Source: a virus (Duplodnaviria; Heunggongvirae; Uroviricota; Caudoviricetes). Taken from it: a stretch of DNA of 64,000 bases. The position numbers were made by a program, and so were the translations under genes. The number at the start of each line of letters is the position of its first letter. Position 1 is the first letter of the stretch. Where the stretch lies: positions 12,305 through 76,304 of IMG/VR virus record IMGVR_UViG_3300032315_001309; one strand, 5' to 3'. This document shows, in pieces, positions 9,782 through 63,990 of this stretch. The notes beneath the pieces are model-generated. The model ran no database searches and was not told where the DNA came from. It was given only the letters and a program-made list of their open reading frames with translations.

Positions 9782-10291
9782 TTGAATATTTTTGTCACAT
9801 CACAATTTCCTGCAGAAAGTGCTATTGTACTTCCCGATAAACATATAACAAAAATGCCACTTGAATCATGTCAAATGCTTTCAATCGTTGCATCGAAGTG
9901 GTATCATGATTATGGTAATTTAATGAAATCTGATGGAACACCATACAAGACGGAAAAGGGAGCTTTTCGAAATCATCCATGCACTAAGTGGGCAGCCGAA
10001 TCAATTCATAATGCTTATTGGTTAATCAAGCATGGTATGAATCTATGTGATGAATTTCAACTACGTTATGGGAAGCCACACGCATGTTACAATACCTTAG
10101 TCGATGCGTATTACTTATTCCCTAAAGGTAAAATTACTGAAGTATCTTCTTTTGTGCGAGCGATGCCGGATGAATTTAAACTTGACGAAACCATTGACAC
10201 TTTTACTGCTTACAAGATGTACATTGGGTCCAAACCTTGGGTTGCATCTAATTATCTTCGTATGCCAAGCCGAAAGCCTGAATGGGTCTAA
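9782..10291 (+). CDS. conserved hypothetical protein (TTG start)
   Basis: 169-aa ORF whose only upstream in-frame start is TTG. A GTGAGGA ribosome-binding site lies 9 nt before it. No family assigned; a weak resemblance to EndoV-type glycosylase N-termini was not accepted. Confidence 0.4.
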   Translation: MNIFVTSQFPAESAIVLPDKHITKMPLESCQMLSIVASKWYHDYGNLMKSDGTPYKTEKGAFRNHPCTKWAAESIHNAYWLIKHGMNLCDEFQLRYGKPHACYNTLVDAYYLFPKGKITEVSSFVRAMPDEFKLDETIDTFTAYKMYIGSKPWVASNYLRMPSRKPEWV

Positions 10292-10389
10292 ATATTTTTA
10301 AAGACATTTATTACATAAAAATTATACAAAAATTTGTATAGTACAATTTAAAGCAAAATCCAAACCTTACAACAATAGATAAATTAAAA

Positions 10390-10644
10390 ATGAAATTTTT
10401 CATTTATTCCAAGAACAATTGCCCATACTGTGAAAAGATTAAAACTGTTATGGCGACGTATAATTTTGAACATGTAGTATATACTTTAGATGAGGATTTT
10501 ACTCGACAACAATTTATTGAGAAACATGGTATTGGTTCAACTTTCCCCCAAGTGATTATGCAAGAGGATCTTGGTTTGGAACGAATTAAATTGGGTGGCT
10601 GTGTGGATACGGTAAAATACCTAAGAGAAAATGGTTTTATATAA
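10390..10644 (+). CDS. nrdC: glutaredoxin (NrdC-like)
   Basis: CPYC active-site motif at residues 11-14 (SKNNCPYCEKIK). Thioredoxin-fold size of 84 aa. Confidence 0.7.
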   Translation: MKFFIYSKNNCPYCEKIKTVMATYNFEHVVYTLDEDFTRQQFIEKHGIGSTFPQVIMQEDLGLERIKLGGCVDTVKYLRENGFI

Positions 10645-10994
10645 TGGAAGAAGCATTTTATGATATAGAGAAAGCAATAGATTATGCTTTCACTGAAAGA
10701 AAATTCGTTATGAATTTCTACTCTTATTTAAAAGTGAAGAATGCAAGAAGAATCGATGCTCAGTCATTTAAAGAAAGCTTAACCGCTAGGAACATACGGA
10801 ATCTAGCCGAGGAATTACATCTTTATATTGATGGTGGACAGACAAATAATGCAAAAATGCTAAGAGAAGCATATGGGCATATTTCAAAACCCGAGGCCAG
10901 GAAAATCGAAAATTACCTTCTTAAGTTCATATCTGATTGCGATCAATATATTAAAGATAAAAATGCCAAAAAGGGAAGAAAGCAAGCTAAATAA
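10644..10994 (+). CDS. hypothetical protein
   Basis: 116-aa ORF. A possible overlapping small gene continues to 11139. Confidence 0.4.
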   Translation: MEEAFYDIEKAIDYAFTERKFVMNFYSYLKVKNARRIDAQSFKESLTARNIRNLAEELHLYIDGGQTNNAKMLREAYGHISKPEARKIENYLLKFISDCDQYIKDKNAKKGRKQAK

Positions 10995-11159
10995 TACAGG
11001 AAATCGAGGATTTGAATGGATGCTCGATTCGGAAAGTAATAATAAACAAAAGGAGGAATCTGTTTTTAGTTATAGATTTAAGAAATTTATTTCTTTTCTT
11101 TATGAGAGAATCAAATTCTTAAGAAATTATCCAAGATAAAAACTATTCGGAGAATATAA

Positions 11160-11417
11160 ATGTATACAATTGCTGTTTTTATGAGCGTTGTTTTAACATT
11201 ATTACTTTTTATTGTAGGGGGCATTGTTGGTTGGATCGCAACACTGTATTTGAATACTTTAGGTACGCAACAGCCTTTTATTCATCCAGAATTTTTTGAT
11301 AGTAACGGTAACATTATACCAGACGAGATCATTGCAGTAAGAATTACACCTAAATTAAACATTGAAGAAGACTATTATGACACAGACAGCAACGAGGAAG
11401 CCGAGGACTACAGCTAG
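11160..11417 (+). CDS. hypothetical membrane protein
   Basis: N-terminal transmembrane helix and acidic C-terminus. Confidence 0.3.
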   Translation: MYTIAVFMSVVLTLLLFIVGGIVGWIATLYLNTLGTQQPFIHPEFFDSNGNIIPDEIIAVRITPKLNIEEDYYDTDSNEEAEDYS

Positions 11418-11952
11418 TGCGGCAAAAAAGGTAAGTTTGGATTTACCAGCAAATCCTTTTCAACATGAAATACTAGAACTAGCATGTAAACAGAAAACAA
11501 AGGCTAAAAAAATTGAAGTTCTACAAAAATATGCTAACGACGCACTAACTAGTCTCATAATTTGGAATTATGATGATACAGTTATTACGCTATTACCTTT
11601 TGGGGATGTTCCATATTCAAAAGTCGCTGATATCTTACCTGGAAACTCGACTCTGACTGAATCGATCACTCATCAAATCGATGATAAAATGGTTGATGCC
11701 GTTGGTGGAAATCAAAGAACCACCCTAAGGACGGAATATACAAAATTCCATAATTTTATTCAGGGTGGAAATGATACTCTCAGCACCATTCGAAGAGAGA
11801 CTATTTTTATTCAACTTTTAGAGGGCCTACATCCCAAAGAAGCAGAAATCGTATGTTTGGTCAAGGATAAGAAATTGGCAACTAAGTATAATTTATCCTT
11901 TGATCTTATTAAGGAAGCCTACCCCCATATTGTCTGGGGTGGTAGATCCTAA
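11377..11952 (+). CDS. hypothetical protein
   Basis: The track start at 11362 is a TTG; the first ATG is at 11377. 191 aa. Confidence 0.4.
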   Translation: MTQTATRKPRTTASAAKKVSLDLPANPFQHEILELACKQKTKAKKIEVLQKYANDALTSLIIWNYDDTVITLLPFGDVPYSKVADILPGNSTLTESITHQIDDKMVDAVGGNQRTTLRTEYTKFHNFIQGGNDTLSTIRRETIFIQLLEGLHPKEAEIVCLVKDKKLATKYNLSFDLIKEAYPHIVWGGRS

Positions 11953-12177: not shown

Positions 12178-12503
12178 TGGGAAAACATTACTTACTAGAC
12201 CTATATGGTTGCGAATTTGAAGTATTAGATAATCTAGAATTTCTACTACAACTTCTAGTAGATTCGGCTCTTCTTTGTGGTGCAACTATTTTGAATAAGT
12301 GCTATCATAAATTTGAGCCACAAGGGGTTACAATTATTCTCTTATTGGCCGAGTCACATATTTCAATACATACTGTACCTGAGAAGGGAGAAGCATATGT
12401 TGATGTGTATACTTGTAGTATAGTAGATCCAGAAATTTCATGTCTTAAAATTATTGATGAAATAAAACCATCACGACATAATTTAAGATTATTTGATAGG
12501 TAG
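12177..12503 (+). CDS. speD: S-adenosylmethionine decarboxylase proenzyme (small prokaryotic class)
   Basis: HYLLDLYGC...LAESHISIHTVPE...YVDVYTC is the AdoMetDC signature, including the ES|S self-processing site (ESHIS). Confidence 0.75.
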   Translation: MGKHYLLDLYGCEFEVLDNLEFLLQLLVDSALLCGATILNKCYHKFEPQGVTIILLLAESHISIHTVPEKGEAYVDVYTCSIVDPEISCLKIIDEIKPSRHNLRLFDR

Positions 12504-53144: not shown

Positions 53145-53966
53145 ATGAGCACTACTGGTAAACTAATTCTCGGCGGCGTTGGCGTATTTCTTGCCGTCAC
53201 TCTTGTTGGCGGCAACTTCACCACGATTCAAACTGGTGAAAATGGACTCTATAAGAGTTTCGATGGTAAGATCTCTGAGCAGGTTCTACAGCCTGGTATC
53301 AACTGGGATGGTCTTGGTTCTATTCAGACTTTCAACACCCGTAAGATCACTGTTAATGCAAATGATCTGAAGCCTAAGACAAAAGATAACACCATTATGA
53401 AAGAAATGGATGTTACTGTCACCTACTCTATCTCTCCCACATCCCTGTTCGGTTTCTATACCGGATATGATATCTCTAATCATGGAGTTACTCAAAATGG
53501 GCAGATTCAGTTGATGGCCGCATACATTCAACGTCTAATCACATCTTCCGTTAACCAATCCGTTGATGAATTCCCTGCTCTGGAAGTCAACTCCAAGCTG
53601 GAAAACATTCAGGATGCTATCAAGGCCAACCTGACGGCTGCTCTTGAGAAGAATGGTCTGGCTGGTAAAATCACCATTGATTCTGTAATCGTTGGTAAAG
53701 CCGATCTTCCTGATTCTCTGGTTGCTTCTGTTAACCGAGTTGTTGTTGCTCAGTCTGCATTCAAGGAACAGGAACAACGTACCCTTACTGCTGAAAGTAA
53801 GGCTAAGGAAAATGCGGCTCTTGCTGCTACTGTTACTGAAAAATCTATTGAGTACAAGCGACTTGAAATCATGGAGAAATTTGTTGATAATCCCAACATC
53901 AAGTGGGGTATCATCAATGGCGCCAAGATGGACTTCATGCCTGGTGGTATGGTAGGCGATAAGTGA
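53145..53966 (+). CDS. SPFH/band-7 (stomatin/prohibitin/HflKC-like) domain membrane protein
   Basis: An N-terminal TM helix is followed by IQTGENGLYKSFDGKISEQVLQPGINW, which is typical of the SPFH domain start, then a coiled-coil-like Ala-rich C-terminus. Confidence 0.5.
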   Translation: MSTTGKLILGGVGVFLAVTLVGGNFTTIQTGENGLYKSFDGKISEQVLQPGINWDGLGSIQTFNTRKITVNANDLKPKTKDNTIMKEMDVTVTYSISPTSLFGFYTGYDISNHGVTQNGQIQLMAAYIQRLITSSVNQSVDEFPALEVNSKLENIQDAIKANLTAALEKNGLAGKITIDSVIVGKADLPDSLVASVNRVVVAQSAFKEQEQRTLTAESKAKENAALAATVTEKSIEYKRLEIMEKFVDNPNIKWGIINGAKMDFMPGGMVGDK

Positions 53967-54230: not shown

Positions 54231-54384
54231 TTAAAATCTTTGAAAAGAGCTATGACGGAGAATCACTCTACGATCTCCAAAGGGATGCGGGAGAGGCAGT
54301 GAGTGAAGAATATAATGACAAAATGCAACAACTTCCAGTAGATCAGTATGGATTTACTGCTGGTATGTTCAAAGTAACTATCGA

Positions 54385-54837
54385 GTGGACACTATGAAAC
54401 AACTAGTAACTTATGCATCGCATGTAGAAGATCCCACTGCATATGCATTCATGGTCTTTGATTCTATCGAAGACACTGAGAAGTTCTTCCGAACCGCACA
54501 GATCTATTTTGAAATGTATCCTGGTGATACTCTCCAAACTATCTACCTAACTAGTGATAAGTTTGTAGAATATACCAACTACATGAAATTCAGGAATGAT
54601 TTTGAAGTAAAGAATATTTCCAATGAACAGTATCAAACATTGAAGGCTGTATTCACTGGCGAATGTAGCAATCATGGAGCATGTGGAGAATTTGGACATA
54701 CTCAGGTCTTTGATATTATCGAATGTTTCGGTAATCTTCCATACGAAGAGAAACCAGAACTGGTTAAAGAGTTGACTGACTTATATCCCGAATGTGATCT
54801 TGCACTTTCTGGTGAAGATGGCGTCTACATCACATAA
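54385..54837 (+). CDS. hypothetical Cys/His-containing protein
   Basis: 150 aa. Contains GECSNHGACGEFGH, a possible metal site. Confidence 0.35.
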   Translation: MDTMKQLVTYASHVEDPTAYAFMVFDSIEDTEKFFRTAQIYFEMYPGDTLQTIYLTSDKFVEYTNYMKFRNDFEVKNISNEQYQTLKAVFTGECSNHGACGEFGHTQVFDIIECFGNLPYEEKPELVKELTDLYPECDLALSGEDGVYIT

Positions 54838-54907
54838 TTTTTGACTAAATAAACACAAGACCAGAAAATAGATTTCTGGCATATTACACTAAAGGAGCTT
54901 TAGTACC

Positions 54908-55933
54908 ATGATTAAAAAAAAGTTTGACACCATTGTTTTTATTGGTAGATTTCAACCATTACACAATGCACACGTAGCTACAATAAAGAAAGCATATAGT
55001 CTTGCTGATCAAGTATTGATTGTAATTGGTTCCGCAGGAGAACCTAGCACATATAAGAATCCTCTATCAGCGGAACAGCGAGAGGATATTTTGATCTATG
55101 CAATGGCAGATATCGATATTCCAGAACAAGATTATAAGATCATTCACCAGGAAGATTGTCTCTATAGTAATCTTAAATGGTTTACTGAGATTCAAGATAA
55201 AATTACAAAACATACCAAGCCCACTGATAATATTGGAATTATCGGGTATGAGAAGGATAGCAGTAGTTTTTATCTCAAGGGATTTCCACAATGGGAATAC
55301 ATTGAAATGCCATTAGTAGAACATCTGAGTTCTACTGATATTCGGACTCTTTACTTTGTTGAATATCCAAATCTCAAATTCATTAAAGGTGTAATTCCTA
55401 AAGCAACCTTTGAGTTTCTTGAGGATAATTTAAACACCAGTTTCAGGACAAACATCGTAAAAGAACGAAGGTTTGTTGAGAACTATAAAAAACCATATGT
55501 GAATCTCCCATATCCTCCGATTTTCGTAACGACAGATGCCGTAGTTTTCCAATCGGGTCATGTTCTAATGATTCGCAGGAAGGCTTTCCCAGGAAATGGT
55601 CTACTCGCTTTACCTGGAGGATTTGTAAATGCAAATACTGATAAATCTCTTGAAGATGCTATGCTCAGGGAGTTGCGAGAGGAAACTAAGATTAAAGTTC
55701 CGCCCGCAGTTCTTAGAAGTAGTATCACTTCATCCCACGTATTTGATGCTATTGAACGAAGCACTAGAGGAAGAACTATCACTCATGCATTCAATATTGT
55801 TCTGAATGAACCAGAATTACCTAAACTAAGGGCGAGTTCCGATGCATCTGATGCAATGTGGATTCCGATTAGTCAAATCAAAAGAAGTGAGTGTTATGAA
55901 GATCATTATCATATCATTTCCTACTTTATCTAA
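54908..55933 (+). CDS. bifunctional NMN adenylyltransferase / Nudix hydrolase (NadM-Nudix, NatV-like)
   Basis: The N-terminal IVFIGRFQPLHNAH is a nucleotidyltransferase (H/T)xGH motif. The C-terminal GGFVNANTDKSLEDAMLRELREETKIKV is a Nudix box. Confidence 0.75.
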   Translation: MIKKKFDTIVFIGRFQPLHNAHVATIKKAYSLADQVLIVIGSAGEPSTYKNPLSAEQREDILIYAMADIDIPEQDYKIIHQEDCLYSNLKWFTEIQDKITKHTKPTDNIGIIGYEKDSSSFYLKGFPQWEYIEMPLVEHLSSTDIRTLYFVEYPNLKFIKGVIPKATFEFLEDNLNTSFRTNIVKERRFVENYKKPYVNLPYPPIFVTTDAVVFQSGHVLMIRRKAFPGNGLLALPGGFVNANTDKSLEDAMLRELREETKIKVPPAVLRSSITSSHVFDAIERSTRGRTITHAFNIVLNEPELPKLRASSDASDAMWIPISQIKRSECYEDHYHIISYFI

Positions 55934-55945
55934 TTATTATTAAAA

Positions 55946-56476
55946 ATGAAACAATTTACAGAACAAAATTTTCTAGAAAAATATAATCAATATGTATTTT
56001 TCTATGGTGGATTTCTTTCCAATTGGGCAAATACACACTTTTTGGATACTCGCTCAGGAACACCATATAACTGCACGGAACAGTATATGATGGAGAAAAA
56101 GGCGTTGCTCTTTCATGATTATGAAATTGCTAAACGTATTATGACTAAGACTTTTCCTGGTGACCAAAAAGCACTAGGGCGAAAAGTAAAAGGATTTGAC
56201 AAATCTTTGTGGGATCAACACGCCAGGCAAATTGTTTACGAAGGTTGTTATTACAAATTCACTCAAAATGAAGATGCTTATAACTATCTAATGGAAACTA
56301 ACGGATATCTTCTTGTAGAAGCCTCTCCCACTGATACTGTATGGGGAGTTGGAATGGGTGGTTATGAGAAAGAAATTGAAGATCCTAAAAACTGGAAAGG
56401 AACTAATTGGTTGGGTCAAGTTCTTACTCAACTACGAGAAGATATTATAGGTAAACCAGAATTAATAATGTTCTGA
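55946..56476 (+). CDS. NADAR-domain protein (YbiA/DUF1768 family)
   Basis: FFYGGFLSNWANTHF...EQYMMEKKALLFHD...LGRKVKGFDKSLW...LLVEASPTDTVWGVGMG matches the NADAR pattern. Confidence 0.6.
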   Translation: MKQFTEQNFLEKYNQYVFFYGGFLSNWANTHFLDTRSGTPYNCTEQYMMEKKALLFHDYEIAKRIMTKTFPGDQKALGRKVKGFDKSLWDQHARQIVYEGCYYKFTQNEDAYNYLMETNGYLLVEASPTDTVWGVGMGGYEKEIEDPKNWKGTNWLGQVLTQLREDIIGKPELIMF

Positions 56477-56695
56477 TTATGAAAGTTCATACTACAGAAT
56501 TAGTTAAAAAAATTCTAGCTAACCCATCAGCACAAAAACAATTACAATAAGCTCTAACTAACCCAAATCAATGTATAGAACTTGATGGTAAAATATATGA
56601 GCTTGTAAAAGTTTGACAGATGTAAAGTCATTAAAACATGAAGACCTTCGGATAGACTGAAGGCAATTAAAAATCACTAAAGGAGATTTAGTACA

Positions 56696-58084
56696 ATGAA
56701 CAGCAACATTATTCTCAATACTGACTCTTACAAATACAGTCAGTTCAATCAATATCCACCAAATACAGAAATCGTATCTTCCTACATTGAAAGTAGGGGG
56801 GCTAAAGGTGGATTCTATGACAGAACCGTATTCTTCGGTTTGCAGATGTTTCTGAAAGAATATCTTTCCAAACCTATTACTCTAGATCAAATCAACGAAG
56901 CAGAAGAAATCGTTAATGCTCACGGACTTCCATTTAATCGTGCAGGATGGGAATACATCCTCAAACAATATGGTGGATTTCTTCCTCTATGCATTCGTGC
57001 AGTAAAAGAAGGTTCCATTATTCCTACTAAAAATCTTCTGGTTTCTGTAAAAAATACTGATCCAAATTGCGCATGGTTGACTTCTTTTATGGAGACAGCT
57101 ATTCTTCGTGCTGTATGGTATCCTACCACCGTAGCCACATATTCGTGGTACATGAAGCAACTGATTCTACATTCTCTGAAAAGAAATGGTACTCCAGAAT
57201 CTATTGATTTCAAACTACATGACTTCGGATTCCGTGGCGTATCTTCTAAGGAATCTGCTGGTATTGGTGGACTAGCTCACCTAGTCAACTTTCAAGGCAC
57301 TGATACCATGGAGGCCCTACTGTATGGTAGGAGGTACTACAATGCCCCTATGGCAGGTTTTAGCATCCCAGCCACAGAACACAGTACAATCACCTCCTGG
57401 GGGCGTATGGGGGAGGCTGATGCATATGAAAACTTCCTGAATAAGTATGCCCAAGAAGGAAAGATCATCGCATGTGTTAGTGATAGCTACAACATCTATG
57501 ATGCATGTTCTAAGATCTGGGGAGAGCAACTGAAGCAGAAAGTTATTAGTTCTGGTGCTACTCTTGTGATTCGTCCCGATAGTGGATATCCACCAGAAGT
57601 TGTTATGGAATGCCTACACATTCTTGATGCTAAGTTCGGACACACTATCAACAATAAAGGATACAAAGTTCTGAATAATGTTCGTCTTATTCAGGGTGAC
57701 GGAGTTTCTTATGAAATTGTTGGTAACATTCTAAGCAGAATGGATACTGCCGGATTCTCTGCTGATAATATTGCATTCGGTCAAGGCGGCGGACTACTAC
57801 AGGCACATGATAGGGATACACTGAAGTTTGCTATGAAGTGCTCTGCTATCCTTGTGGATGGTGAATGGCGTGATGTGTACAAGCAACCTATCACTGATAT
57901 GGGTAAAGAATCCAAGAAAGGATTGATTGACCTTTACAAAATCGATGGTGAGTATGTCACTAAACGTATTGATGATCATGAAAACCCAGCGAGCGAAACT
58001 CAAATGGTTTTTTATAATGGTATTATGTATAACAGCACCAACTTAGAGACGGTTCGCAAACTGGCACAGTCTATGAGCGTCTGA
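56696..58084 (+). CDS. nadV: nicotinamide phosphoribosyltransferase (NAMPT/NadV)
   Basis: NTDSYKYSQF, HDFGFRGVSS, GTDTMEAL and STIPATEHST are characteristic NAMPT motifs. 462 aa. Confidence 0.8.
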   Translation: MNSNIILNTDSYKYSQFNQYPPNTEIVSSYIESRGAKGGFYDRTVFFGLQMFLKEYLSKPITLDQINEAEEIVNAHGLPFNRAGWEYILKQYGGFLPLCIRAVKEGSIIPTKNLLVSVKNTDPNCAWLTSFMETAILRAVWYPTTVATYSWYMKQLILHSLKRNGTPESIDFKLHDFGFRGVSSKESAGIGGLAHLVNFQGTDTMEALLYGRRYYNAPMAGFSIPATEHSTITSWGRMGEADAYENFLNKYAQEGKIIACVSDSYNIYDACSKIWGEQLKQKVISSGATLVIRPDSGYPPEVVMECLHILDAKFGHTINNKGYKVLNNVRLIQGDGVSYEIVGNILSRMDTAGFSADNIAFGQGGGLLQAHDRDTLKFAMKCSAILVDGEWRDVYKQPITDMGKESKKGLIDLYKIDGEYVTKRIDDHENPASETQMVFYNGIMYNSTNLETVRKLAQSMSV

Positions 58085-58302
58085 CTCTGAGAGTGCTACT
58101 ATATATTAGTAGTTGAGAGATTTTTCTCAAATCACCCAAAAATTTTAAATACTAAATAAATACAGCTAATCAATTAATTATTATGGCCAATTATTACGAC
58201 TGGGATCTCATTCAAAAAAATGATTGGGATTTTATTAAAAAGAATGATTGGGAGATACTTTCTCTGGGAATGTAAGTTATATTTACATAACCAATACCGA
58301 AG

Positions 58303-58336
58303 AGAGTTCAATCCCACAAAGATTGAACTCTTTTTT
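58303..58336 (+). terminator. rho-independent terminator (11-bp stem AGAGTTCAATC/GATTGAACTCT + T6)
   Basis: Perfect inverted repeat with a 7-nt loop and a TTTTTT run, upstream of the tRNA island. Confidence 0.6.
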
Positions 58337-58451
58337 ATGATTAGCTTATGACACTATCTCAACTGTCCATTACTACAACATCCTCTTCAAAAATCGGGTA
58401 TTGTATAGAAGTGATTGAGAAATCAACAGAACCTTGACAATTTAAACTTTT

Positions 58452-58524
58452 GGGTTAGTAGCATAGTGGCTAATGCACCTGGCTTTTAACCAGTATATCG
58501 TGAGTTCGAGTCTCACCTAACCCA
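58452..58524 (+). tRNA. tRNA-Lys (anticodon TTT)
   Basis: Manual fold: 7-bp acceptor GGGTTAG/CTAACCC, D-arm GCAT/ATGC, anticodon loop CTTTTAA, T-arm GTGAG-TTCGAGT-CTCAC. Confidence 0.65.
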
Positions 58525-58555
58525 TTAGGACACTATTATCTAAAATGTCCTATTT

Positions 58556-58626
58556 GTCTGGTTCGTCTAATGGTAAGACTGGAGCTTCCAAACCTTTTGA
58601 CGTGGGTTCGATTCCTACACCAGGCG
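58556..58626 (+). tRNA. tRNA, anticodon unresolved (possibly CCA, Trp)
   Basis: Acceptor GTCTGGT/ACCAGGC, D-arm GTCT/AGAC, T-arm GTGGG-TTCGATT-CCTAC. The anticodon stem could not be folded cleanly by hand. Confidence 0.4.
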
Positions 58627-58653
58627 TTAGGTTAAATATACCTAGATTTATTT

Positions 58654-58740
58654 GGGGAAATGGCAACTATCGGCAAGTGTTGCGGCGCTCTGTAAAAGCG
58701 TTACTTTGAACCGTTGGGGGTTCGACTCCCTCTTTCCTCA
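58654..58740 (+). tRNA. tRNA-Tyr (GTA), type II with long variable arm
   Basis: Acceptor GGGGAAA/TTTCCTC, anticodon arm GCGCT-CTGTAAA-AGCGT, T-arm GGGGG-TTCGACT-CCCTC. 87 nt. Confidence 0.5.
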
Positions 58741-58769
58741 TTAGTCATAAATATGACTAGTATATAATT

Positions 58770-58843
58770 GGTCCTGTAGCATAGTGGCCTAATGCACTAC
58801 CCTGTCACGGTAGATTACGGCGGTTCAAATCCGCTCAGGATCG
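58770..58843 (+). tRNA. tRNA-Asp (GTC)
   Basis: Acceptor GGTCCTG/CAGGATC, perfect anticodon stem CTACC/GGTAG with loop CTGTCAC, T-arm GGCGG-TTCAAAT-CCGCT. Confidence 0.7.
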
Positions 58844-58844
58844 T

Positions 58845-58870
58845 ATCTTGCTTCAATAGCAAGATTTTTA
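58845..58870 (+). terminator. hairpin terminator ATCTTGC-TTCAATA-GCAAGAT + TTTT
   Basis: Perfect 7-bp inverted repeat and a T run, directly after tRNA-Asp. Confidence 0.5.
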
Positions 58871-58897
58871 ACTTTATTATCTGAACACTGGAGAATC

Positions 58898-59155
58898 ATG
58901 GGAACAAATTCTAATTGTTGCTGCTATGAAGGAAAAGCTAATCACCCAGATGATGAAGCAGTAGATCGTTTTGCTACTGCTATGAAAGAAAAACTCGCCA
59001 AGAAACGGGAGCAAGGGTGTAGCGGGTGGCAAACTGCTTCGGCTGATTTGCTAAATCAGTTGCTCCAAGAACACCTAAGCAAAGGTGATCCTGTCGATAT
59101 TGCAAATTTTGCCATGATGCTGCATCAGAATGGCCAATCAATCGTAATAAAATGA
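58898..59155 (+). CDS. hypothetical protein
   Basis: 85-aa ORF with a GGAG ribosome-binding site, between tRNA clusters. GC content is higher than the average. Confidence 0.4.
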   Translation: MGTNSNCCCYEGKANHPDDEAVDRFATAMKEKLAKKREQGCSGWQTASADLLNQLLQEHLSKGDPVDIANFAMMLHQNGQSIVIK

Positions 59156-59355
59156 TTACTTTTGAAAGAAAAATGAGGTTGTATGAGAAACTTCATGTAG
59201 GTTGGTGGTGGATCGGGCAAATCTTTGACGAGTGGCGTTGGACCATGACTCATGATGATGGTGACTTCTTTAACTATCTTCAGTCAGATTATGTTGCTTA
59301 CGAGCAAGATATGTATTATGAAGTGAAAGATGGTAAGAAGATTACCACTAAATAA
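59152..59355 (+). CDS. hypothetical protein
   Basis: 67-aa ORF overlapping the previous stop. Confidence 0.35.
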   Translation: MITFERKMRLYEKLHVGWWWIGQIFDEWRWTMTHDDGDFFNYLQSDYVAYEQDMYYEVKDGKKITTK

Positions 59356-59362
59356 AACACAA

Positions 59363-59414
59363 TGGGATGTAGTTCAGCGGTAGAACGTCCTTCATGACGG
59401 TAAACTGTATTCAA
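59363..59414 (+). pseudogene. degenerate tRNA-like 5' fragment (acceptor + D-arm GTTC-AGCGGTA-GAAC, CAT-containing loop)
   Basis: Clear tRNA-type D-arm and a TTCATGA loop. No matching T-arm or 3' acceptor follows, and it abuts the start of tRNA-Asn. Confidence 0.25.
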
Positions 59415-59487
59415 TCCCCATGACTCAGCAGGCGACGAGGGCTGACTGTTAATCAGTTTTTGCTAGGATCGATACCTAGATGGGGAG
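59415..59487 (+). tRNA. tRNA-Asn (GTT)
   Basis: Acceptor TCCCCAT/ATGGGGA (U1-A72), anticodon arm GCTGA-CTGTTAA-TCAGT, T-arm CTAGG-ATCGATA-CCTAG. Confidence 0.5.
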
Positions 59488-59515
59488 TTGTCTGAATAGA
59501 CATTAAACTATTTGA

Positions 59516-59588
59516 GGGAGCATAGCTCAGCGGCTAGAGCAAACTCTTGATAAGGGTTAGGTCACAGGTTCAAATCCTGTTGTTCCCA
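59516..59588 (+). tRNA. tRNA-Ile (GAT)
   Basis: Acceptor GGGAGCA/TGTTCCC, D-arm GCTC/GAGC, anticodon arm AACTC-TTGATAA-GGGTT, T-arm ACAGG-TTCAAAT-CCTGT. Confidence 0.7.
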
Positions 59589-59610
59589 TTCCGCTGAATA
59601 AGTGGTGTAT

Positions 59611-59687
59611 TGCGGAAAAGTGTATTGGTTGCACACTGGGCTCATAACCCAGAGGTAGTCTCAAACGGTTCGATTCCTACTTCCGCC
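59611..59687 (+). tRNA. tRNA-Met-like (CAT) with atypical T-arm, possibly a pseudogene
   Basis: Acceptor (T)GCGGAA/TTCCGCC, D-arm GTGT/GCAC, perfect anticodon stem CTGGG/CCCAG with loop CTCATAA. The T-stem pairs poorly (AACGG-TTCGATT-CCTAC). Confidence 0.35.
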
Positions 59688-59756
59688 ATTGGGAAGCAAT
59701 TCTAGATTATCCCTTCCGGTGCACCCTACCGGGTCTGAATAGATGAAGTGGGTCCA

Positions 59757-59830
59757 GGGGAATTAGCTCAGATGTGTAGAGCACTTGGTTGAAGCCCAAG
59801 GTGTCGTCGGTTCGATTCCGACATTTCCCA
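59757..59830 (+). tRNA. tRNA-Phe (GAA)
   Basis: Acceptor GGGGAAT/ATTTCCC, anticodon arm CTTGG-TTGAAGC-CCAAG, T-arm GTCGG-TTCGATT-CCGAC. Confidence 0.7.
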
Positions 59831-59868
59831 TACGAGTCACTAAATAATAGTGACTCGATTCCTTTGTT

Positions 59869-60387
59869 ATGAAACATCTTCATCATATTATCCCAAAACA
59901 CGCAGGAGGAACTGACGAACCCTCCAATCTTATTGAACTTACTGTAGAAGAACATGCGAGGGAACATTACCTCTTGTGGAACCAATATGGTAGGTGGCAA
60001 GATAAAGTTGCGTGGAAGGGTTTATACGAAATGATAGATAAACAAGATGTTATTGCTAACATCAGGAATGAAATGTGGCAATCTTCTAGTCATAGAGAAA
60101 TGTTTTCTCACATAATGAAGCAAGTCTGGAAAAGAGAAGATTATCGTCAACGACAGTTGCAAATGTCAAATGTTTCTCAGCCGATTGCTACTTTAGCATC
60201 AACTTCACCCGAATCCAGACAAAAGAGAAAGAAGACTTTACAAGAAATCAATCATCAACAGGGTTCTAAAAACTCACAGTTTGGTAAGATGTGGATCACA
60301 AACGAAACTCATTCTTATAGGATAAATAAGAATGAGTCTATCCCCGAAGGTTACCGAAAGGGTAGAGTCATTAAAAGTAAGACCTAA
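59869..60387 (+). mobile_element. HNH homing endonuclease gene inside the tRNA island
   Basis: The N-terminal HHIIPKHAGGTDEPSNLIELTVEEHAREH is an HNH motif. The C-terminal GSKNSQFGKMWITNETHSYRI...PEGYRKGR is a NUMOD-like DNA-binding motif. A perfect 9-bp hairpin (GAGTCACTA/TAGTGACTC) sits just upstream. Confidence 0.65.
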
Positions 60388-60474
60388 GTGATTTTATAAA
60401 GCATTGGGGTGGAAATAACACACCACATTAAAACCGGGTTAGAAGTTTGTAGGTTTTCATAAACCTACCATTAT

Positions 60475-60548
60475 GGGGTCACATGTACCAAGGCTGGCGA
60501 GACTGCTTTGCAAGCAGACTGTGTAGAGTTCGATTCTCTATGATTCCA
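60475..60548 (+). tRNA. tRNA-Ala (TGC)
   Basis: Acceptor GGGGTCA/TGATTCC with the G3:U70 Ala identity pair, anticodon arm ACTGC-TTTGCAA-GCAGA, T-arm TAGAG-TTCGATT-CTCTA. The D-arm is poorly paired. Confidence 0.5.
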
Positions 60549-60570
60549 TTGATACTTAAAGTATCATTTT

Positions 60571-60641
60571 GGTCCTGTCGTCCCGTGGTTAAGACGCTGC
60601 CCTTTCAAGGCGGAACAAGAGTTCAATTCTCTTCTGGACTA
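60571..60641 (+). tRNA. tRNA-Glu (TTC)
   Basis: Acceptor GGTCCTG/CTGGACT, anticodon arm CTGCC-CTTTCAA-GGCGG, short variable loop, T-arm AAGAG-TTCAATT-CTCTT. Confidence 0.55.
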
Positions 60642-60649
60642 TTTCTCAT

Positions 60650-60750
60650 TTATGAGAAACCTGTTGAATACTCGGGCCAGTTGGACGGGAGTTAATGTTA
60701 AAGTGCTCAATGACTTTAATTCTTCAAGAGTTCGACTCTCTTGTGGTCCA
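60650..60750 (+). ncRNA. tRNA-like element of unresolved structure (T-arm AAGAG-TTCGACT-CTCTT present; possible atypical or pseudo-tRNA)
   Basis: Canonical T-arm and a possible CCA-proximal GTGGTCCA are present. No standard acceptor or anticodon arms could be built. A 6-bp inverted repeat TTAAAG/CTTTAA lies upstream. Confidence 0.2.
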
Positions 60751-60886
60751 TAATTTATAATCATTTGTAATTAAAATGTAACCAAAATGAGGAAAAAACT
60801 TGTTGGTTGGAATTTTGATTTTAGACTGTATGACTCTAGGCATTGGGATAATAAAAACAATTGTTGGCACTCACAGTAGGTAAGCA

Positions 60887-61180
60887 ATGAAAGGCACAGC
60901 ATATACAAAACTTTATAGTTATAATCCCATTCACGAACCCATAAGTGGGTTACCTTGGCATCTAGCCTTTGGTAAAATGCGAAGAGAAGCAATCAAGAAA
61001 GAGTTTTTGAATAATCCACGTCTTCAACAATGGGGCCTCCGTATTGATAGCTCATGGTGTCCACAATTAAAAAATGATCCAGAGTTAAGGCAACTTGTGA
61101 AATCTGGATTTCTGAAACAAGTAAGAAGATTCGATAAATCTTATTTGGTATTGAACGATGAATGTGTATCGACATATTAA
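60887..61180 (+). CDS. hypothetical protein
   Basis: 97-aa ORF. The overlapping minus-strand ORFs are judged spurious. Confidence 0.3.
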   Translation: MKGTAYTKLYSYNPIHEPISGLPWHLAFGKMRREAIKKEFLNNPRLQQWGLRIDSSWCPQLKNDPELRQLVKSGFLKQVRRFDKSYLVLNDECVSTY

Positions 61181-61418
61181 AAACGGTCACCTGTATTGGG
61201 TCTATCGTGATAGATATCATCAAATAAAGGTAGAACCTTTGTATTATGGTACGCCAAAGTTGACTTGTACTCAGAATCCAAGAAAGCTCACTCACTATAG
61301 TGGGCTTGAGAGTTTTACATTAACATATACAGAATAGATTGGTCCAATCTAAAAACTGACACACCAAGCAGGCTCAAGCCTGAATTCCTGATATGATTTT
61401 ATCAAATGAAATTAAATC

Positions 61419-61619
61419 ATGCGTTGGATTTGGCCCCCGAAAGAACATAAAGATTCCGAATTGGATGATCTTGTTAATAATGGGAAACTTAAAGAGTATT
61501 CTTATGTTTCTCTTGAAGATTACGAAAAACTCGTTTTGACTCTTCCATGCGGAACTAAAATTTCTATTGATTCTGAACCTGGAATTGAATGTAGTTCTCT
61601 TTCTGTTCGTGTATCCTAA
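61419..61619 (+). CDS. hypothetical protein
   Basis: 66-aa ORF. Confidence 0.3.
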   Translation: MRWIWPPKEHKDSELDDLVNNGKLKEYSYVSLEDYEKLVLTLPCGTKISIDSEPGIECSSLSVRVS

Positions 61620-61826
61620 ATGGAAAATAAATCAGTTGAAATTGATATGGAATTCATTCGAGAATTCACTGGGCTCTTTCAGGAAGTAAATTGTTCGCTA
61701 TTCAGGAAACCCAATCTACAAGAAAGAGTAGATGAATTTGTCGAAAAGTATTCTCATGTAATTAACAGAGAAGGTTATGAAAATCCCGAACCCAAACAAA
61801 ATCATGCAACTTACTGTCAACTATAA
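61620..61826 (+). CDS. hypothetical protein
   Basis: 68-aa ORF, contiguous with the previous one. Confidence 0.3.
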   Translation: MENKSVEIDMEFIREFTGLFQEVNCSLFRKPNLQERVDEFVEKYSHVINREGYENPEPKQNHATYCQL

Positions 61827-62007
61827 TTCACACACACAAATGTTTGTCTGGACCATATATGATGGCCCAGACGGAATTGATGAGGGTTGCGGCGATGCTC
61901 GTACTCTTGGTGAAGTGTTTGAACAAGTTACTATCTGGAGGCATAACAACGCCAAACAGTATTTCTGATAAATCGGTACTCAATACAAAAACCAACTACA
62001 AAATCTC

Positions 62008-62382
62008 ATGAAAAATAAAAAACTCAAAAGAATCAAAGCCTGGGTAAAAGCTCTCAAGTCTGGTAAGTATAAACAAACCACTGAACAACTATATGATGGA
62101 AAAGGATTCTGTTGTCTTGGTGTGGCCACGGACCTATATCTGAAAGAAAAGGGGAAGGAATGGCAAAAAGAAACTTCACGTTCTTATGGTGTTGATAATG
62201 AGTTTGATGAGATCGAAACCTCTGAACTTACTACAAGAATCGCTTCGTGGTATGGATTGAAATTAAGGTCACCAGAAGTTTCTCACAAAGGTCTCGGCAG
62301 AACATTGATGTATCTTAATGATAGTGAGAAACTTTCTTTCAAAAAGATTGCTAAGTTGATCAAAAAAACTTATCTAAAGTAA
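62008..62382 (+). CDS. hypothetical basic protein
   Basis: 124 aa, Lys-rich at both ends. Confidence 0.35.
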   Translation: MKNKKLKRIKAWVKALKSGKYKQTTEQLYDGKGFCCLGVATDLYLKEKGKEWQKETSRSYGVDNEFDEIETSELTTRIASWYGLKLRSPEVSHKGLGRTLMYLNDSEKLSFKKIAKLIKKTYLK

Positions 62383-62547
62383 AAAACATGAAAGATTATG
62401 ATTTGGAACGATTGATCGAGTCTGGTGATATCACTAAGTATGTGTATGAAGATGATGAGTACACTGAAAATGTCAAGATCACGTTTCCTTCTGGTTTGGT
62501 GTTATCTATTAGTTCTTCTGCAACTACCTATGGTGGTAGCGGTTTGA

Positions 62548-62913
62548 TTGTTGAAGTTGGTGAATGAAATGACTGAAAAAGATCTACTATTGCGACTAGA
62601 ACATATCTGTCAGGTATATCGTGACATTAACGACAAGTATTGGGAAGAAAATGATCTTACTTTAGAAGAAGTGAATCAATGTCTAGTCTACATTTCTGGT
62701 AAACTTCAAAATAATATATTCAATCGAGAAGATCCTGAACAGTGGCAAGAAGTTAAATATATTCTCTATGGACGACTAGAGAAGAAATCGCCCCAGACAA
62801 CGTTTGAACTATCTTTGGGACTTCCTGAGGGTGTTGGTACTGTTGTTCTGGATGAAATAGAATATGGTCGCATGTACCTAGATGAAAATTATCAAATTGG
62901 ATTAAAAAAATGA
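62548..62913 (+). CDS. hypothetical protein
   Basis: 121-aa ORF. Confidence 0.35.
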   Translation: MLKLVNEMTEKDLLLRLEHICQVYRDINDKYWEENDLTLEEVNQCLVYISGKLQNNIFNREDPEQWQEVKYILYGRLEKKSPQTTFELSLGLPEGVGTVVLDEIEYGRMYLDENYQIGLKK

Positions 62914-63110
62914 ACATAAAACAACTTAAAGAACTATTAAATGAACACCCTGATGATATGCGACTAGTTCGACGTGGGTATGAGGGTGGTTATTCTGATA
63001 TAGATGATTTAGTGGTGATTGGTTTGAAACTCAACAAAAATACTGCATGGTTTTACGGCCCACATGAAATTTCTACGGATGAAGACGAATTTGCACTTCT
63101 TATTGATTAA
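62910..63110 (+). CDS. hypothetical protein
   Basis: 66 aa, overlapping start (ATGA). Confidence 0.3.
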   Translation: MNIKQLKELLNEHPDDMRLVRRGYEGGYSDIDDLVVIGLKLNKNTAWFYGPHEISTDEDEFALLID

Positions 63111-63113
63111 AAA

Positions 63114-63446
63114 ATGAGCTACTACATTCTTGTTGTTGATCGTGACGGTGACGGGCTTGAAATGCTTACAGAAAATAAATATATGAATGTGTGTCTGTTT
63201 TTCACTAAAGAAGAACTTGATGCCGGAATCGTTGGTGCAATCAAGTATCTTAAAGATCAATTAGAATTTGGTCAAAATTACTCTGACATTGATTCAATGT
63301 TGAATGTTTTTGAATGTGTGAGTAGTATTGGTGATATCAGTACTGTAAATTACATCAGGAACATTCGGGAATCAATTGATGAGGAAGAAAAACAAAAAGA
63401 CAAACGACGAAAACTTTATTTGGAACTTCAACGGGAATTTGGCTAA
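63114..63446 (+). CDS. hypothetical protein
   Basis: 110-aa ORF. Confidence 0.35.
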   Translation: MSYYILVVDRDGDGLEMLTENKYMNVCLFFTKEELDAGIVGAIKYLKDQLEFGQNYSDIDSMLNVFECVSSIGDISTVNYIRNIRESIDEEEKQKDKRRKLYLELQREFG

Positions 63447-63480
63447 TAACCAAACTTCAAAAATTTCACACTAAATTATT

Positions 63481-63678
63481 ATGCCTAAACTATCTGACGC
63501 CGATAAAATCGGGGCAGTGATTTTCTCCACTGTTGTAACTCTCATTCTTATTATGATCGCCCACCAAAATATCATGAATAAACGACAACATGATTCTTTT
63601 GTTTTGTGCTTGAAATCGGGGGTTCCTAGTGAGTATGCTGATAATTCAATTGCATGTTCTTCTATTCTTCGTAATTAA
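63481..63678 (+). CDS. hypothetical small membrane protein
   Basis: Central TM helix VIFSTVVTLILIMIA. Confidence 0.3.
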   Translation: MPKLSDADKIGAVIFSTVVTLILIMIAHQNIMNKRQHDSFVLCLKSGVPSEYADNSIACSSILRN

Positions 63679-63683
63679 ATATA

Positions 63684-63908
63684 ATGACTCCTACCGAAGC
63701 CTCAGTTAAATTAGTAGAAATCATCGAAAAGCACATTGACTCTAAACCAACTGAATTGTATTTAAAAATTATGGTTCTTATGTGTGAATATGGTGATTCT
63801 TGTTATTTGGTAGCAAAACAAAAATATTATAAAGATGGTTATGGCGATGGACATTTTGATGGTTATCAAGAAGGATATGGTTCAGGCTGTAGTGATTCCG
63901 CGCCATAA
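63684..63908 (+). CDS. hypothetical protein
   Basis: 74-aa ORF. Confidence 0.3.
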   Translation: MTPTEASVKLVEIIEKHIDSKPTELYLKIMVLMCEYGDSCYLVAKQKYYKDGYGDGHFDGYQEGYGSGCSDSAP

Positions 63909-63918
63909 ATAAAATAAA

Positions 63919-63990
63919 GGCAGTATAGCTGAGTGGTAAAGCGCATCATTCATACCGATGTGATCATGAGTTCGATCCTCATTGCTGCCA
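63919..63990 (+). tRNA. tRNA-Met/Ile2 (CAT)
   Basis: Acceptor GGCAGTA/TGCTGCC, anticodon arm CATCA-TTCATAC-CGATG, T-arm ATGAG-TTCGATC-CTCAT. Confidence 0.65.

Follow-up and report, generated by a model that had tools for sequence, protein, structure and literature searches.

The NAD+ (nicotinamide adenine dinucleotide) reconstitution pathway NARP2 consists of Nampt and Nmnat, and its prototype from phage KVP40 counters the Thoeris, DSR and SIR2-HerA defence systems (bioRxiv 10.1101/2024.02.11.579819). NARP2 alone also overcomes aRES, and in the NARP1-AP system a macrodomain phosphatase, Adpp, which is related to Poa1p, is encoded between Adps and Namat and converts ADP-ribose-1''-phosphate to ADP-ribose (10.64898/2026.01.28.702374). 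Phage NADAR domains in NadM/NadV neighbourhoods were pointed out from gene context by Iyer et al. in 2022 (PMC9503650). The locus described here lies in a stretch of 64,000 nucleotides, called the window below, from a virus of the Caudoviricetes (IMG/VR record IMGVR_UViG_3300032315_001309, positions 12,305 to 76,304). In it the gene for a NADAR-domain protein is located between the genes for a nicotinamide mononucleotide (NMN) adenylyltransferase fused to a Nudix hydrolase (NMNAT-Nudix) and a nicotinamide phosphoribosyltransferase (NAMPT). The three open reading frames (ORFs) were found at 54908-58084, all on the plus strand, where an earlier note on this DNA had placed them. We read the module as a NARP2-type NAD+ reconstitution system with an accessory ADP-ribose-releasing enzyme, and the probability that we give to this reading is about 0.55.

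NAMPT matches two Pfam families (NAMPT_N PF18127, 3.9e-27; NAPRTase PF04095, 1.5e-56) and scores 617 bits against PRK09198, above the cut-off of 405. It aligns with a bacterial homolog of known structure (PDB 7yqo, E = 2e-158) and with human NAMPT (E = 1e-121), and 16 of the 16 active-site positions checked are identical to those of the human enzyme (D16, Y18, F193, R196, D219, H247, R311, D313, G353, D354, G383, G384, R392, K400, K415 and K423 in human numbering). These are residues of importance in the human NAMPT structures. Over 72% of the fused query, identity to KVP40 NadV is 45%.

NMNAT-Nudix matches the Pfam families of both its domains (CTP_transf_like PF01467, 1.4e-10, residues 10-147; NUDIX PF00293, 1e-15, residues 208-338). 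Its closest solved structure is slr0787 of Synechocystis (2qjo, E = 4e-77), which has the same architecture and aligns from end to end, and the bifunctional enzyme of Francisella (2qjt, E = 9e-65) is also aligned over its full length. The best NCBIfam match is the bifunctional NMNAT/Nudix family PRK05379 (6e-105, 351 bits). The second adenylyltransferase motif, S141-S-T-D-I-R, matches SSTAIR of slr0787, and the REUXEE core of the Nudix domain is intact as R254-ELREE and is invariant in the lineage. In PHROGs, NMNAT-Nudix and NAMPT fall into the usual phage families (PHROG 448/395) and the NADAR protein into a family of unknown function. The profile matches and the conserved residues thus bear out the KVP40-type NAMPT and NMNAT salvage that the earlier note had read here, including the NAMPT call with its residue check and the fusion of the adenylyltransferase to a Nudix domain.

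The protein encoded between the two enzymes had been named as a NADAR protein and this also holds, since it matches PF08719 (1.7e-47, 162 bits; gathering threshold 35.1) and its catalytic residues are intact. It matches TIGR02464 as well (9e-43, 146 bits; cut-off 73.7), aligns with PDB 8bau (E = 1.3e-17), and keeps all eight ADP-ribose-contact or catalytic residues of P. nicotianae NADAR (E45, K52, R79, W89, R94, E125, D130 and W133; residue list from the PnNADAR study, PMC11543638). A diagnostic position of the superfamily is occupied by Glu in the YbiA type, by Asp in the BC4488/DarG1 type and by His in T4-like phage NADARs (PMC11543638; PMC11825919). In the window protein this position is Glu125, within an LVEAS motif, and by this sequence signature the protein is a member of the YbiA subfamily. 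Johannesman et al. placed only one phage member on the YbiA side of the NADAR superfamily (PMC11825919). The Glu125 signature, 26% identity to E. coli YbiA (E = 5e-10) and the TIGR02464 score are what the protein shares with E. coli YbiA and the myxobacterial YbiA antitoxin of YarT, but those occur in a LexA-controlled dinG-ybiB operon or in a toxin-antitoxin pair and not in a NAD+ salvage module.

In the reading that we prefer, NAMPT would convert nicotinamide and phosphoribosyl pyrophosphate (PRPP) to NMN, and the adenylyltransferase domain would join NMN and ATP to give NAD+; these two predicted steps are the well supported core. The pool so rebuilt would be the one depleted by defences of the TIR, SIR2, SEFIR or RES type or by the infection. 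The Nudix domain is presumably an ADP-ribose pyrophosphatase, as its homology to slr0787 suggests, and would split free ADP-ribose into AMP and ribose-5-phosphate, which would remove a reactive product and return carbon towards PRPP via the host Prs. The NADAR protein, which would be made from the same message as NMNAT-Nudix, would cleave an N-glycosidic ADP-ribose linkage, as the family chemistry and the gene position suggest. Guanine-N2-ADP-ribose on nucleic acid is the sole ADP-ribose substrate shown for the superfamily, and a soluble N-linked ADP-ribose derivative may be the alternative. The ADP-ribose freed by NADAR would feed the neighbouring Nudix domain, and NADAR would take the part of a Poa1p-like macrodomain in turning a non-canonical NAD+-derived product into plain ADP-ribose. 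We infer this accessory role by analogy with the macrodomain phosphatase of NARP1-AP. As in NARP1-AP, two enzyme genes of NAD+ reconstitution flank an accessory gene for ADP-ribose processing, and most viral relatives of the module have a Poa1p-like macrodomain in exactly this place. The window differs from NARP1-AP in that its core is NARP2 and its accessory protein is a NADAR with an N-glycohydrolase fold, not a macrodomain phosphatase. A PRPS-like (Adps) partner was not found by tblastn in the 64-kb window, and the rest of the genome lies outside the window.

The slot between NMNAT and NAMPT was surveyed in 80 viral loci reached via NMNAT (L099-L178). It holds a macrodomain-like gene in about 50 of them, NADAR in about 6 and a nucleoside-deoxyribosyltransferase/SLOG-like gene in about 9, and it is empty in 14. 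The macrodomain profile matches the yeast ADP-ribose-1''-phosphate phosphatase Poa1p (6lfu, E = 7.5e-11). From this census and the Poa1p match, which are both sequence-based, the slot is one for ADP-ribose-processing genes; it is a hot spot for these and for mobile endonucleases. The lineage of the window is the only one seen with NADAR alone in the slot. In some viral relatives it contains a DUF1937 or DUF723 gene (slot set L099-L178, L002-L005 and L014).

The order NMNAT, NADAR, NAMPT is found in five further IMG/VR genomes reached via NADAR and also on metagenomic contigs. Between the window and L002 the identity is 91% for NADAR, 55% for NMNAT and 64% for NAMPT, and over L002-L006 it is up to 91%, 52-57% and 60-64%, respectively. 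The NADAR tree disagrees with the trees of the enzymes, yet the gene order is kept in five or more diverged viral genomes. Since NADAR is more conserved than its flanks and the trees are incongruent, gene-level recombination appears to have occurred inside a module that keeps its order. At L008 (7125-9958) the order is PRPS-like gene, NADAR, NAMPT-family gene, and the unit resembles NARP1 or a prs-nadV operon. L008 could not be taken as NARP1, since its PRPS-like protein may be Adps but also a normal Prs, and prs-nadV operons exist. At L008 and L007 (8013-10007) distant NADARs that are 55% identical are encoded directly upstream of a NAMPT-family gene of only about 30% identity. The accessory N-glycohydrolase is favoured because of the positional precedent of NARP1-AP, the NADAR in the slot of L008 and the NADAR genes found beside nadM-nadV in bacteria.

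How common is such a module? Among 50,697 phage records, 2,019 have a NAMPT-family gene, 478 have NMNAT-Nudix and 719 have homologs of the window NADAR. An adjacent NMNAT-NAMPT pair is present in at least 121 of the records, and Synechococcus phages B3 and B23 are the only ones that cover the joined three-protein query in full. A NADAR plus NAMPT query is covered to 80% or more in the same two phages only, with both genes present somewhere in about 456 records. These represent about 456 of the 719 NADAR-bearing records, versus a base rate of 4% for the NAMPT family, a comparison that is uncorrected for phylogeny or genome size. Cultured Synechococcus phages with enzymes of the module are limited to B3, B23 and BUCT-ZZ01, and IMG/VR holds at least 202 relatives of the NMNAT clade of the window. 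The view that the module is unusual in a cyanophage is therefore correct for cultured phages and does not extend to IMG/VR.

Several points weigh against a NARP2 system with an accessory enzyme. The activities of the lineage proteins are all predicted from sequence. The PRK05379 score of NMNAT-Nudix is below the curated equivalog cut-off of 397. Its first motif is GRFQPLH19-N-A-H22, an HxGH motif with Gly replaced by Ala, and the GX5E segment of its Nudix box has a two-residue insertion (G238...D245). The catalytic motifs that had been proposed as a check are thus retained in part: the REx2EE box is intact, but HxGH reads HNAH and the GX5E segment carries the insertion. Taken together, the checks named in the earlier note do not refute its reading. 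The HNAH variant is unchanged in eight diverged members of the lineage that are about 55% identical overall, and FQP[FL]HNA is one of two scan patterns whose candidates yielded the 202 confirmed viral relatives, so the variant appears to be under constraint. NARP2 needs no ADP-ribose, and a feeder enzyme is less obviously useful than in NARP1. Direct adjacency of NADAR and NAMPT is rare (B3 and B23 only, among the 50,697 records), and the linkage could be an accident in a hyper-variable region. The YbiA-type signature, with TIGR02464 above its cut-off, equally fits an N-glycosidase of riboflavin intermediates. The same operon and leader form a housekeeping salvage operon in bacteria, and a counter-defence role is not required. 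Activity on guanine-ADP-ribose in vitro is also no proof of the physiological target, as YbiA and gp30.3 failed against DarT1.

This last point bears on the main rival for NADAR, an independent role against ADP-ribosyltransferases (ARTs). In this case NADAR would be an orphan antitoxin that strips ADP-ribose left on phage DNA or RNA by DarT1-like or other ART defences, and it would be merely co-located with the salvage genes. We consider this somewhat unlikely. Phage NADARs of three clades (T4 AdfN, Bas32 and Bas60) neutralise DarTG1 (PMC11825919), and hydrolysis of guanine-ADP-ribose in vitro is superfamily-wide, having been found for every NADAR tested, YbiA types included (PMC11125620; PMC11543638). 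Like AdfN (T4 gp30.3, Bas32/Bas60), the window protein is a stand-alone phage NADAR without the DarG1 extension and with the catalytic residues kept, and homologs that are 47-67% identical to it are also found on phage contigs without NAD+ salvage genes nearby. However, it has no detectable similarity to AdfN of T4 (BLASTP E = 14) and belongs to the YbiA side, with Glu at the diagnostic position and neither the His of T4-like phages nor the Asp of DarG1. The N-terminal beta-beta-alpha extension by which DarG1 binds DNA is absent, and the NADAR domain begins at about residue 11-22. Its position between the salvage enzymes is fixed across diverged genomes despite gene replacement, and the slot is shared with a macrodomain of the small-molecule phosphatase type. 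In one study E. coli YbiA and T4 gp30.3 failed to rescue DarT1 toxicity in cells (PMC11125620). The immediate neighbours of NADAR are NAD+ salvage enzymes on both sides and no DarT gene, and an ART toxin gene beside NADAR was not seen among the ORFs of the window or of B3. The anti-DarT-like function that had been suggested for this protein is possible but gains no specific support, as the protein is YbiA-type and lacks similarity to AdfN.

NADAR could also degrade a soluble N-linked ADP-ribose signal or NADase product, such as cyclic ADP-ribose (cADPR), N7-cADPR or His-ADPR, and thereby silence signalling and yield ADP-ribose. This was predicted from context for phage NADARs by Iyer et al. 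(PMC9503650), and it is in line with the co-occurrence of macrodomain and SLOG/nucleoside-deoxyribosyltransferase-like genes at L002 and L007 and with the precedent of Adpp, which acts on a soluble product (10.64898/2026.01.28.702374). Its basis is gene context, however, and the action of NADAR on such molecules is a prediction; as it stands this explanation is improbable. A role as a YbiA-like N-glycosidase of reactive riboflavin-pathway intermediates, unrelated to NAD+, is very improbable. The TIGR02464 score and the identity to E. coli YbiA would agree with it, and several phage homologs of NADAR are annotated as YbiA or GTP cyclohydrolase II. On the other side, no riboflavin genes were seen among the ORFs listed near the module, either in the window or in the loci inspected, NADAR is consistently embedded in NAD+ salvage modules, and guanine-ADP-ribose is an in vitro substrate of E. 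coli YbiA itself (PMC11125620).

The remaining rival concerns the module as a whole. It may be an ordinary auxiliary metabolic module, in which a captured cellular nadM-nadV operon boosts NAD+ for replication and NADAR is a housekeeping damage-control partner. The supply of NAD+ for phage replication was reportedly first proposed for KVP40. In the 80 bacterial loci collected, nadM and nadV are in the same order and on the same strand in 64, and NADAR adjoins them in 3-4 (L018, L020, L039). Gene order and strand are common to the window and to bacterial nadM-nadV operons (e.g. the NrtR-regulated slr0787-slr0788 of Synechocystis), many of which, in free-living bacteria, also have the leader before both genes and where NADAR is occasionally adjacent, but an NrtR-type 21-bp operator is not evident in the window. 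NARP2 overproduces NAD+ even without a defence system (bioRxiv 10.1101/2024.02.11.579819), and the genome announcement of B3 and B23 names very few auxiliary metabolic genes, gives no defence context and does not discuss the genes of the module (PMC7171214). Against this, KVP40 NARP2 experimentally cancels several NAD+-depleting systems (10.1101/2024.02.11.579819; 10.64898/2026.01.28.702374), and the slot in viral relatives holds a Poa1p-like macrodomain whose NARP1 counterpart exists specifically against aRES. The metabolic explanation is unlikely in our judgement, and it is compatible with a counter-defence role.

Identity to the sampled cellular homologs is only 40-44% for NMNAT and up to 59% for NAMPT, which argues against recent capture from a host. 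Recent capture from a cyanobacterial host in particular is unsupported, the nearest cellular NMNATs (40-44%) being proteobacterial; the scan patterns for cellular NMNATs would miss sequences of the Synechocystis type, and slr0787 is the best PDB match. The window shares with KVP40 NARP2 the same two enzyme families and the NMNAT-Nudix fusion architecture, and differs in three respects. The nadM and nadV genes of the window are adjacent with NADAR between them, whereas KVP40 nadV is not beside the NMNAT gene. The window genes have a structured leader and KVP40 nadV does not. The window NMNAT is nearer to the cellular NadM slr0787 than to its homologs in cultured phages outside B3 and B23, which are at most 41% identical to it.

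The most novel item of the locus is this leader, which could not be placed in anything known. The approximately 50 nt before the NMNAT and NAMPT starts are near-duplicates that form two hairpins (Table 1). The first has an ATAGA pentaloop closed by G-C or A-U. The second follows about 20 nt further on, presents the Shine-Dalgarno sequence GGAG in its loop and ends 2-4 nt before the ATG. Leader alignments were made with structure-blind fixed windows and with a covariance model (CM); a whole-leader MAFFT alignment mis-aligned the 3' arms. In the fixed-window alignments 7 of 7 pairs of the first hairpin and 4 of 7 pairs of the second are compensatory, and the first is 91% paired versus 50% in shuffled and 28-50% in slid controls. 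A gap-free seed of ten sequences from bacteria, archaeal metagenome-assembled genomes and viruses shows 95% pairing with 13 of 14 pairs compensatory, and the covariance model R1 was built from it. R1 has exactly two significant sites in the 64-kb window (next best E = 0.25), 59 sites in 80 bacterial loci and 137 in 90 viral loci (E <= 0.01), and all 196 matches are on the coding strand. They lie immediately ahead of nadM or nadV or, in some bacteria, of a SPFH/Band_7 gene (loci with the leader: the window, L001-L006, L012, L014, L017-L096 and L099-L181). B3, Xanthomonas phage LucasX and cyanophage BUCT-ZZ01 have the leader, and none was found before KVP40 nadV. The consensus of 53 distinct sequences consists of a GANAGAC loop, a G-poor linker of 10-14 nt and a GGAG(N) second loop; it comes from the CM alignment, which is fitted to the structure, and its pair counts lean towards the structure. 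By eye, a complementary tetramer that could form a loop-linker pseudoknot (GAUAG with CUAUC/UUAUC) occurs in many linkers, inconsistently.

The leader was also compared with known elements. Guanidine-II (mini-ykkC) riboswitches consist of two small hairpins with a short linker, conserved loops and covarying stems, the 3' hairpin lying over the ribosome-binding site. The leader resembles them in architecture only, as its GANAGAC and GGAGN loops are unrelated to ACGR. An NrtR operator was rejected because the arms of the leader vary freely with their complementarity kept, the loop does not change, G·U pairs are confined to the coding strand, and 196 of 196 matches are on that strand; in NrtR sites, which are palindromes of 21 bp, the arms are conserved around a GT-N7-AC core, the opposite pattern of conservation. 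A general phage gene-start signal or PeSL-like cassette was rejected for the window because there are only two copies in 64 kb and loci with NADAR only have no leader. An intrinsic terminator was rejected because neither hairpin is followed by a U-run. Rfam 15 gave nothing at E <= 5 for 54300-58500 of the window apart from one tRNA and chance-level matches, and five bacterial loci with the leader were without a match at E <= 1. Nothing in the literature was found that links nadV or nadM with a riboswitch or contains the loop sequence, in a search that excluded most subscription journals.

In the window and in every diverged relative NMNAT and NAMPT are preceded by the leader, and it is absent before NADAR or the macrodomain gene. 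Because the two enzyme genes each have a leader, a promoter-like element stands before the first, and NADAR has no leader, the genes fall into (NMNAT-NADAR) plus (NAMPT), which are probably co-regulated. The earlier claim of a single operon is kept in so far as co-regulation is probable and NADAR starts 12 nt behind the NMNAT stop; NMNAT and NAMPT, which is 763 nt downstream on the same strand, have separate leaders. Translation of both enzyme genes is probably controlled jointly, because both are preceded by the same two-hairpin leader. This coordination would come about through binding of the leader to a metabolite (NAD+, NMN, ADP-ribose or PRPP) or to an enzyme that these genes encode. We propose tentatively, at less than even odds, that the leader is an undescribed class of cis-regulatory RNA of nadM and nadV in bacteria and phages that senses the state of the NAD+ pathway, and that the embedded NADAR is an N-glycohydrolase variant of NARP2. 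The sigma-70-like promoter candidate before NMNAT is backed by weak evidence, as the consensus scan shows no overall enrichment of the region relative to shuffles; at the corresponding site of diverged relatives, TTGACx-N17-TAnnAT elements are clearer. An element specific to NAMPT is kept where the NAMPT of relatives is only about 60-65% identical, with a stem swap between GAC/GTC and AGTC/GACT. It may act as a promoter outside the sigma-70 class or form a third helix of the leader.

Table 1. Genes, leaders and upstream elements of the NAD+ module, in positions of the window
Feature	Position	Strand	Evidence and remarks
Sigma-70-like promoter candidate before NMNAT, TTGACT-17 nt-GAAAAT	54841-54869	+	consensus scan 9/12; weak
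Leader copy 1	54859-54905	+	R1 27.8 bits, E = 2.9e-5 (filters off); minimum free energy (MFE) z = -3.0
Copy 1, first hairpin CCAGAAA-ATAGA-TTTCTGG	54861-54879		followed by linker
Copy 1, second hairpin ACTAAAG-GAG-CTTTAGT	54888-54904		with Shine-Dalgarno; ATG 54908
NadM-type NMN adenylyltransferase (residues ~10-147) fused to Nudix hydrolase (~208-338)	54908-55933	+	341 aa; Pfam/NCBIfam
NADAR-domain protein, YbiA subfamily, predicted ADP-ribosyl/ribosyl N-glycohydrolase	55946-56476	+	176 aa; PF08719/TIGR02464
Shortened counterpart of B3 gp48 (45 aa)	56479-56550	+	23 aa; comparison with B3
NAMPT-specific upstream element, hairpin GAC-AGATGTAAA-GTC then TTAAAACA box	56615-56638	+	conservation in relatives
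Leader copy 2	56643-56693	+	R1 37.5 bits, E = 6.7e-8; MFE fold gives both hairpins
Copy 2, first hairpin CCTTCGG-ATAGA-CTGAAGG	56645-56663		followed by linker
Copy 2, second hairpin ACTAAA-GGAGA-TTTAGT	56676-56692		ATG 56696
NadV-type nicotinamide phosphoribosyltransferase (NAMPT)	56696-58084	+	462 aa; PF18127 + PF04095, PRK09198

B3 and B23 are T4-like Kyanoviridae of about 244 kb that originate from a subarctic lake (PMC7171214). The window is 97.2-97.3% identical to them across the module locus and the preceding 25 kb, and NMNAT-Nudix is 98.8-99.1% identical to their gp46. In B3 gp46 is annotated as NMNAT, gp47, the NADAR, as hypothetical, and gp49 as NAMPT. Relative to B3, the synonymous and nonsynonymous changes are 22:7 in NMNAT-Nudix, 9:6 in NADAR and 28:9 in NAMPT. 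A CAA to TAA change truncates the small ORF after NADAR from 45 to 23 aa; it is probably left over from the variable slot and not a functional gene. Neither the NARP2 core nor its presence in this phage lineage is new, the latter being on record in GenBank through B3 and B23. Of the newness that the earlier note had implied, the core pair and the NADAR context do not qualify, the former being annotated in B3/B23 and the latter known since 2022; what is new is the NADAR gene directly between the enzymes. The directly embedded NADAR is a lineage-specific variant with a predicted role.

About 500 bp upstream of the module (~54300-54826, plus strand) have no megablast match in B3 or B23. This stretch contains an ORF of 150 aa without a Pfam match (54385-54837, plus strand), and B3 and B23 have gp45, annotated as translation initiation factor 2, at the equivalent position. 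The left boundary of the module therefore appears to be a recombination junction. Downstream, eight tRNA genes (Lys, Trp, Tyr, Asp, Ile, Phe, Glu and Met; 58451-63990, plus strand) begin 367 nt after NAMPT and enclose an ORF for an HNH endonuclease (59869-60387). The content and order of this cluster are unlike those of B3 (e.g. Tyr and Phe here; Ala, Ser, His, Thr and Cys in B3). A SPFH/Band_7 gene (53145-53966, plus strand; Pfam 1.4e-20) is located about 950 bp upstream of the module. As a third member of the module it is a weak candidate, having neither a leader nor detectable similarity to the leader-bearing Band_7 proteins of bacteria. Several bacteria have a different SPFH gene with the same leader downstream of nadV (e.g. 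L056, 9167-10192), and at L007 a SPFH gene (10067-11932) comes right after the NAMPT-family gene. The link of SPFH genes to the module may be a coincidence.

Mobile elements were observed within the NAMPT genes of some relatives. The NAMPTs of L002 (10640-12955) and L006 (8554-10905) contain an in-frame insert of 312-314 aa inside the RPD|SG motif. The inserts share 69% identity and are bounded much as inteins are (Cys as first and Asn as last residue, with Ser at +1), and they appear to be intein-like elements in the active-site motif of a phage NAMPT. In L003 a group I intron (core 9914-10165; RF00028, 73.5 bits, E = 1.9e-18) interrupts the NAMPT gene after HDFGA and carries a NUMOD4/HNH_3 homing endonuclease (ORF 10215-10859).

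Depletion of NAD+ and ADP-ribosylation count among the main chemistries by which bacteria defend themselves, and the reconstitution of NAD+ by phages (NARP1, 2 and 3, and NARP1-AP) is an active field. The locus puts NARP2 in T4-like freshwater cyanophages, where conflicts centred on NAD+ are unstudied and the only other isolates are B3 and B23. The series found in the slot (empty, Poa1p-like macrodomain, NADAR, SLOG-like) is a guide to the non-canonical NAD+ breakdown products that phages recycle, and the module gives YbiA-type NADARs a testable physiological context. If the proposal for the embedded NADAR is true, this variant extends NAD+ reconstitution to defences that make N-linked ADP-ribose products. 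Should the leader be confirmed, Proteobacteria and viruses would have in common a new RNA that regulates NAD+ salvage. NARP2 is known to be toxic, and the leader could be the means by which phages keep this in check; if it acts as proposed, phages could switch on the costly, PRPP-consuming NARP2 pathway only when NAD+ falls.

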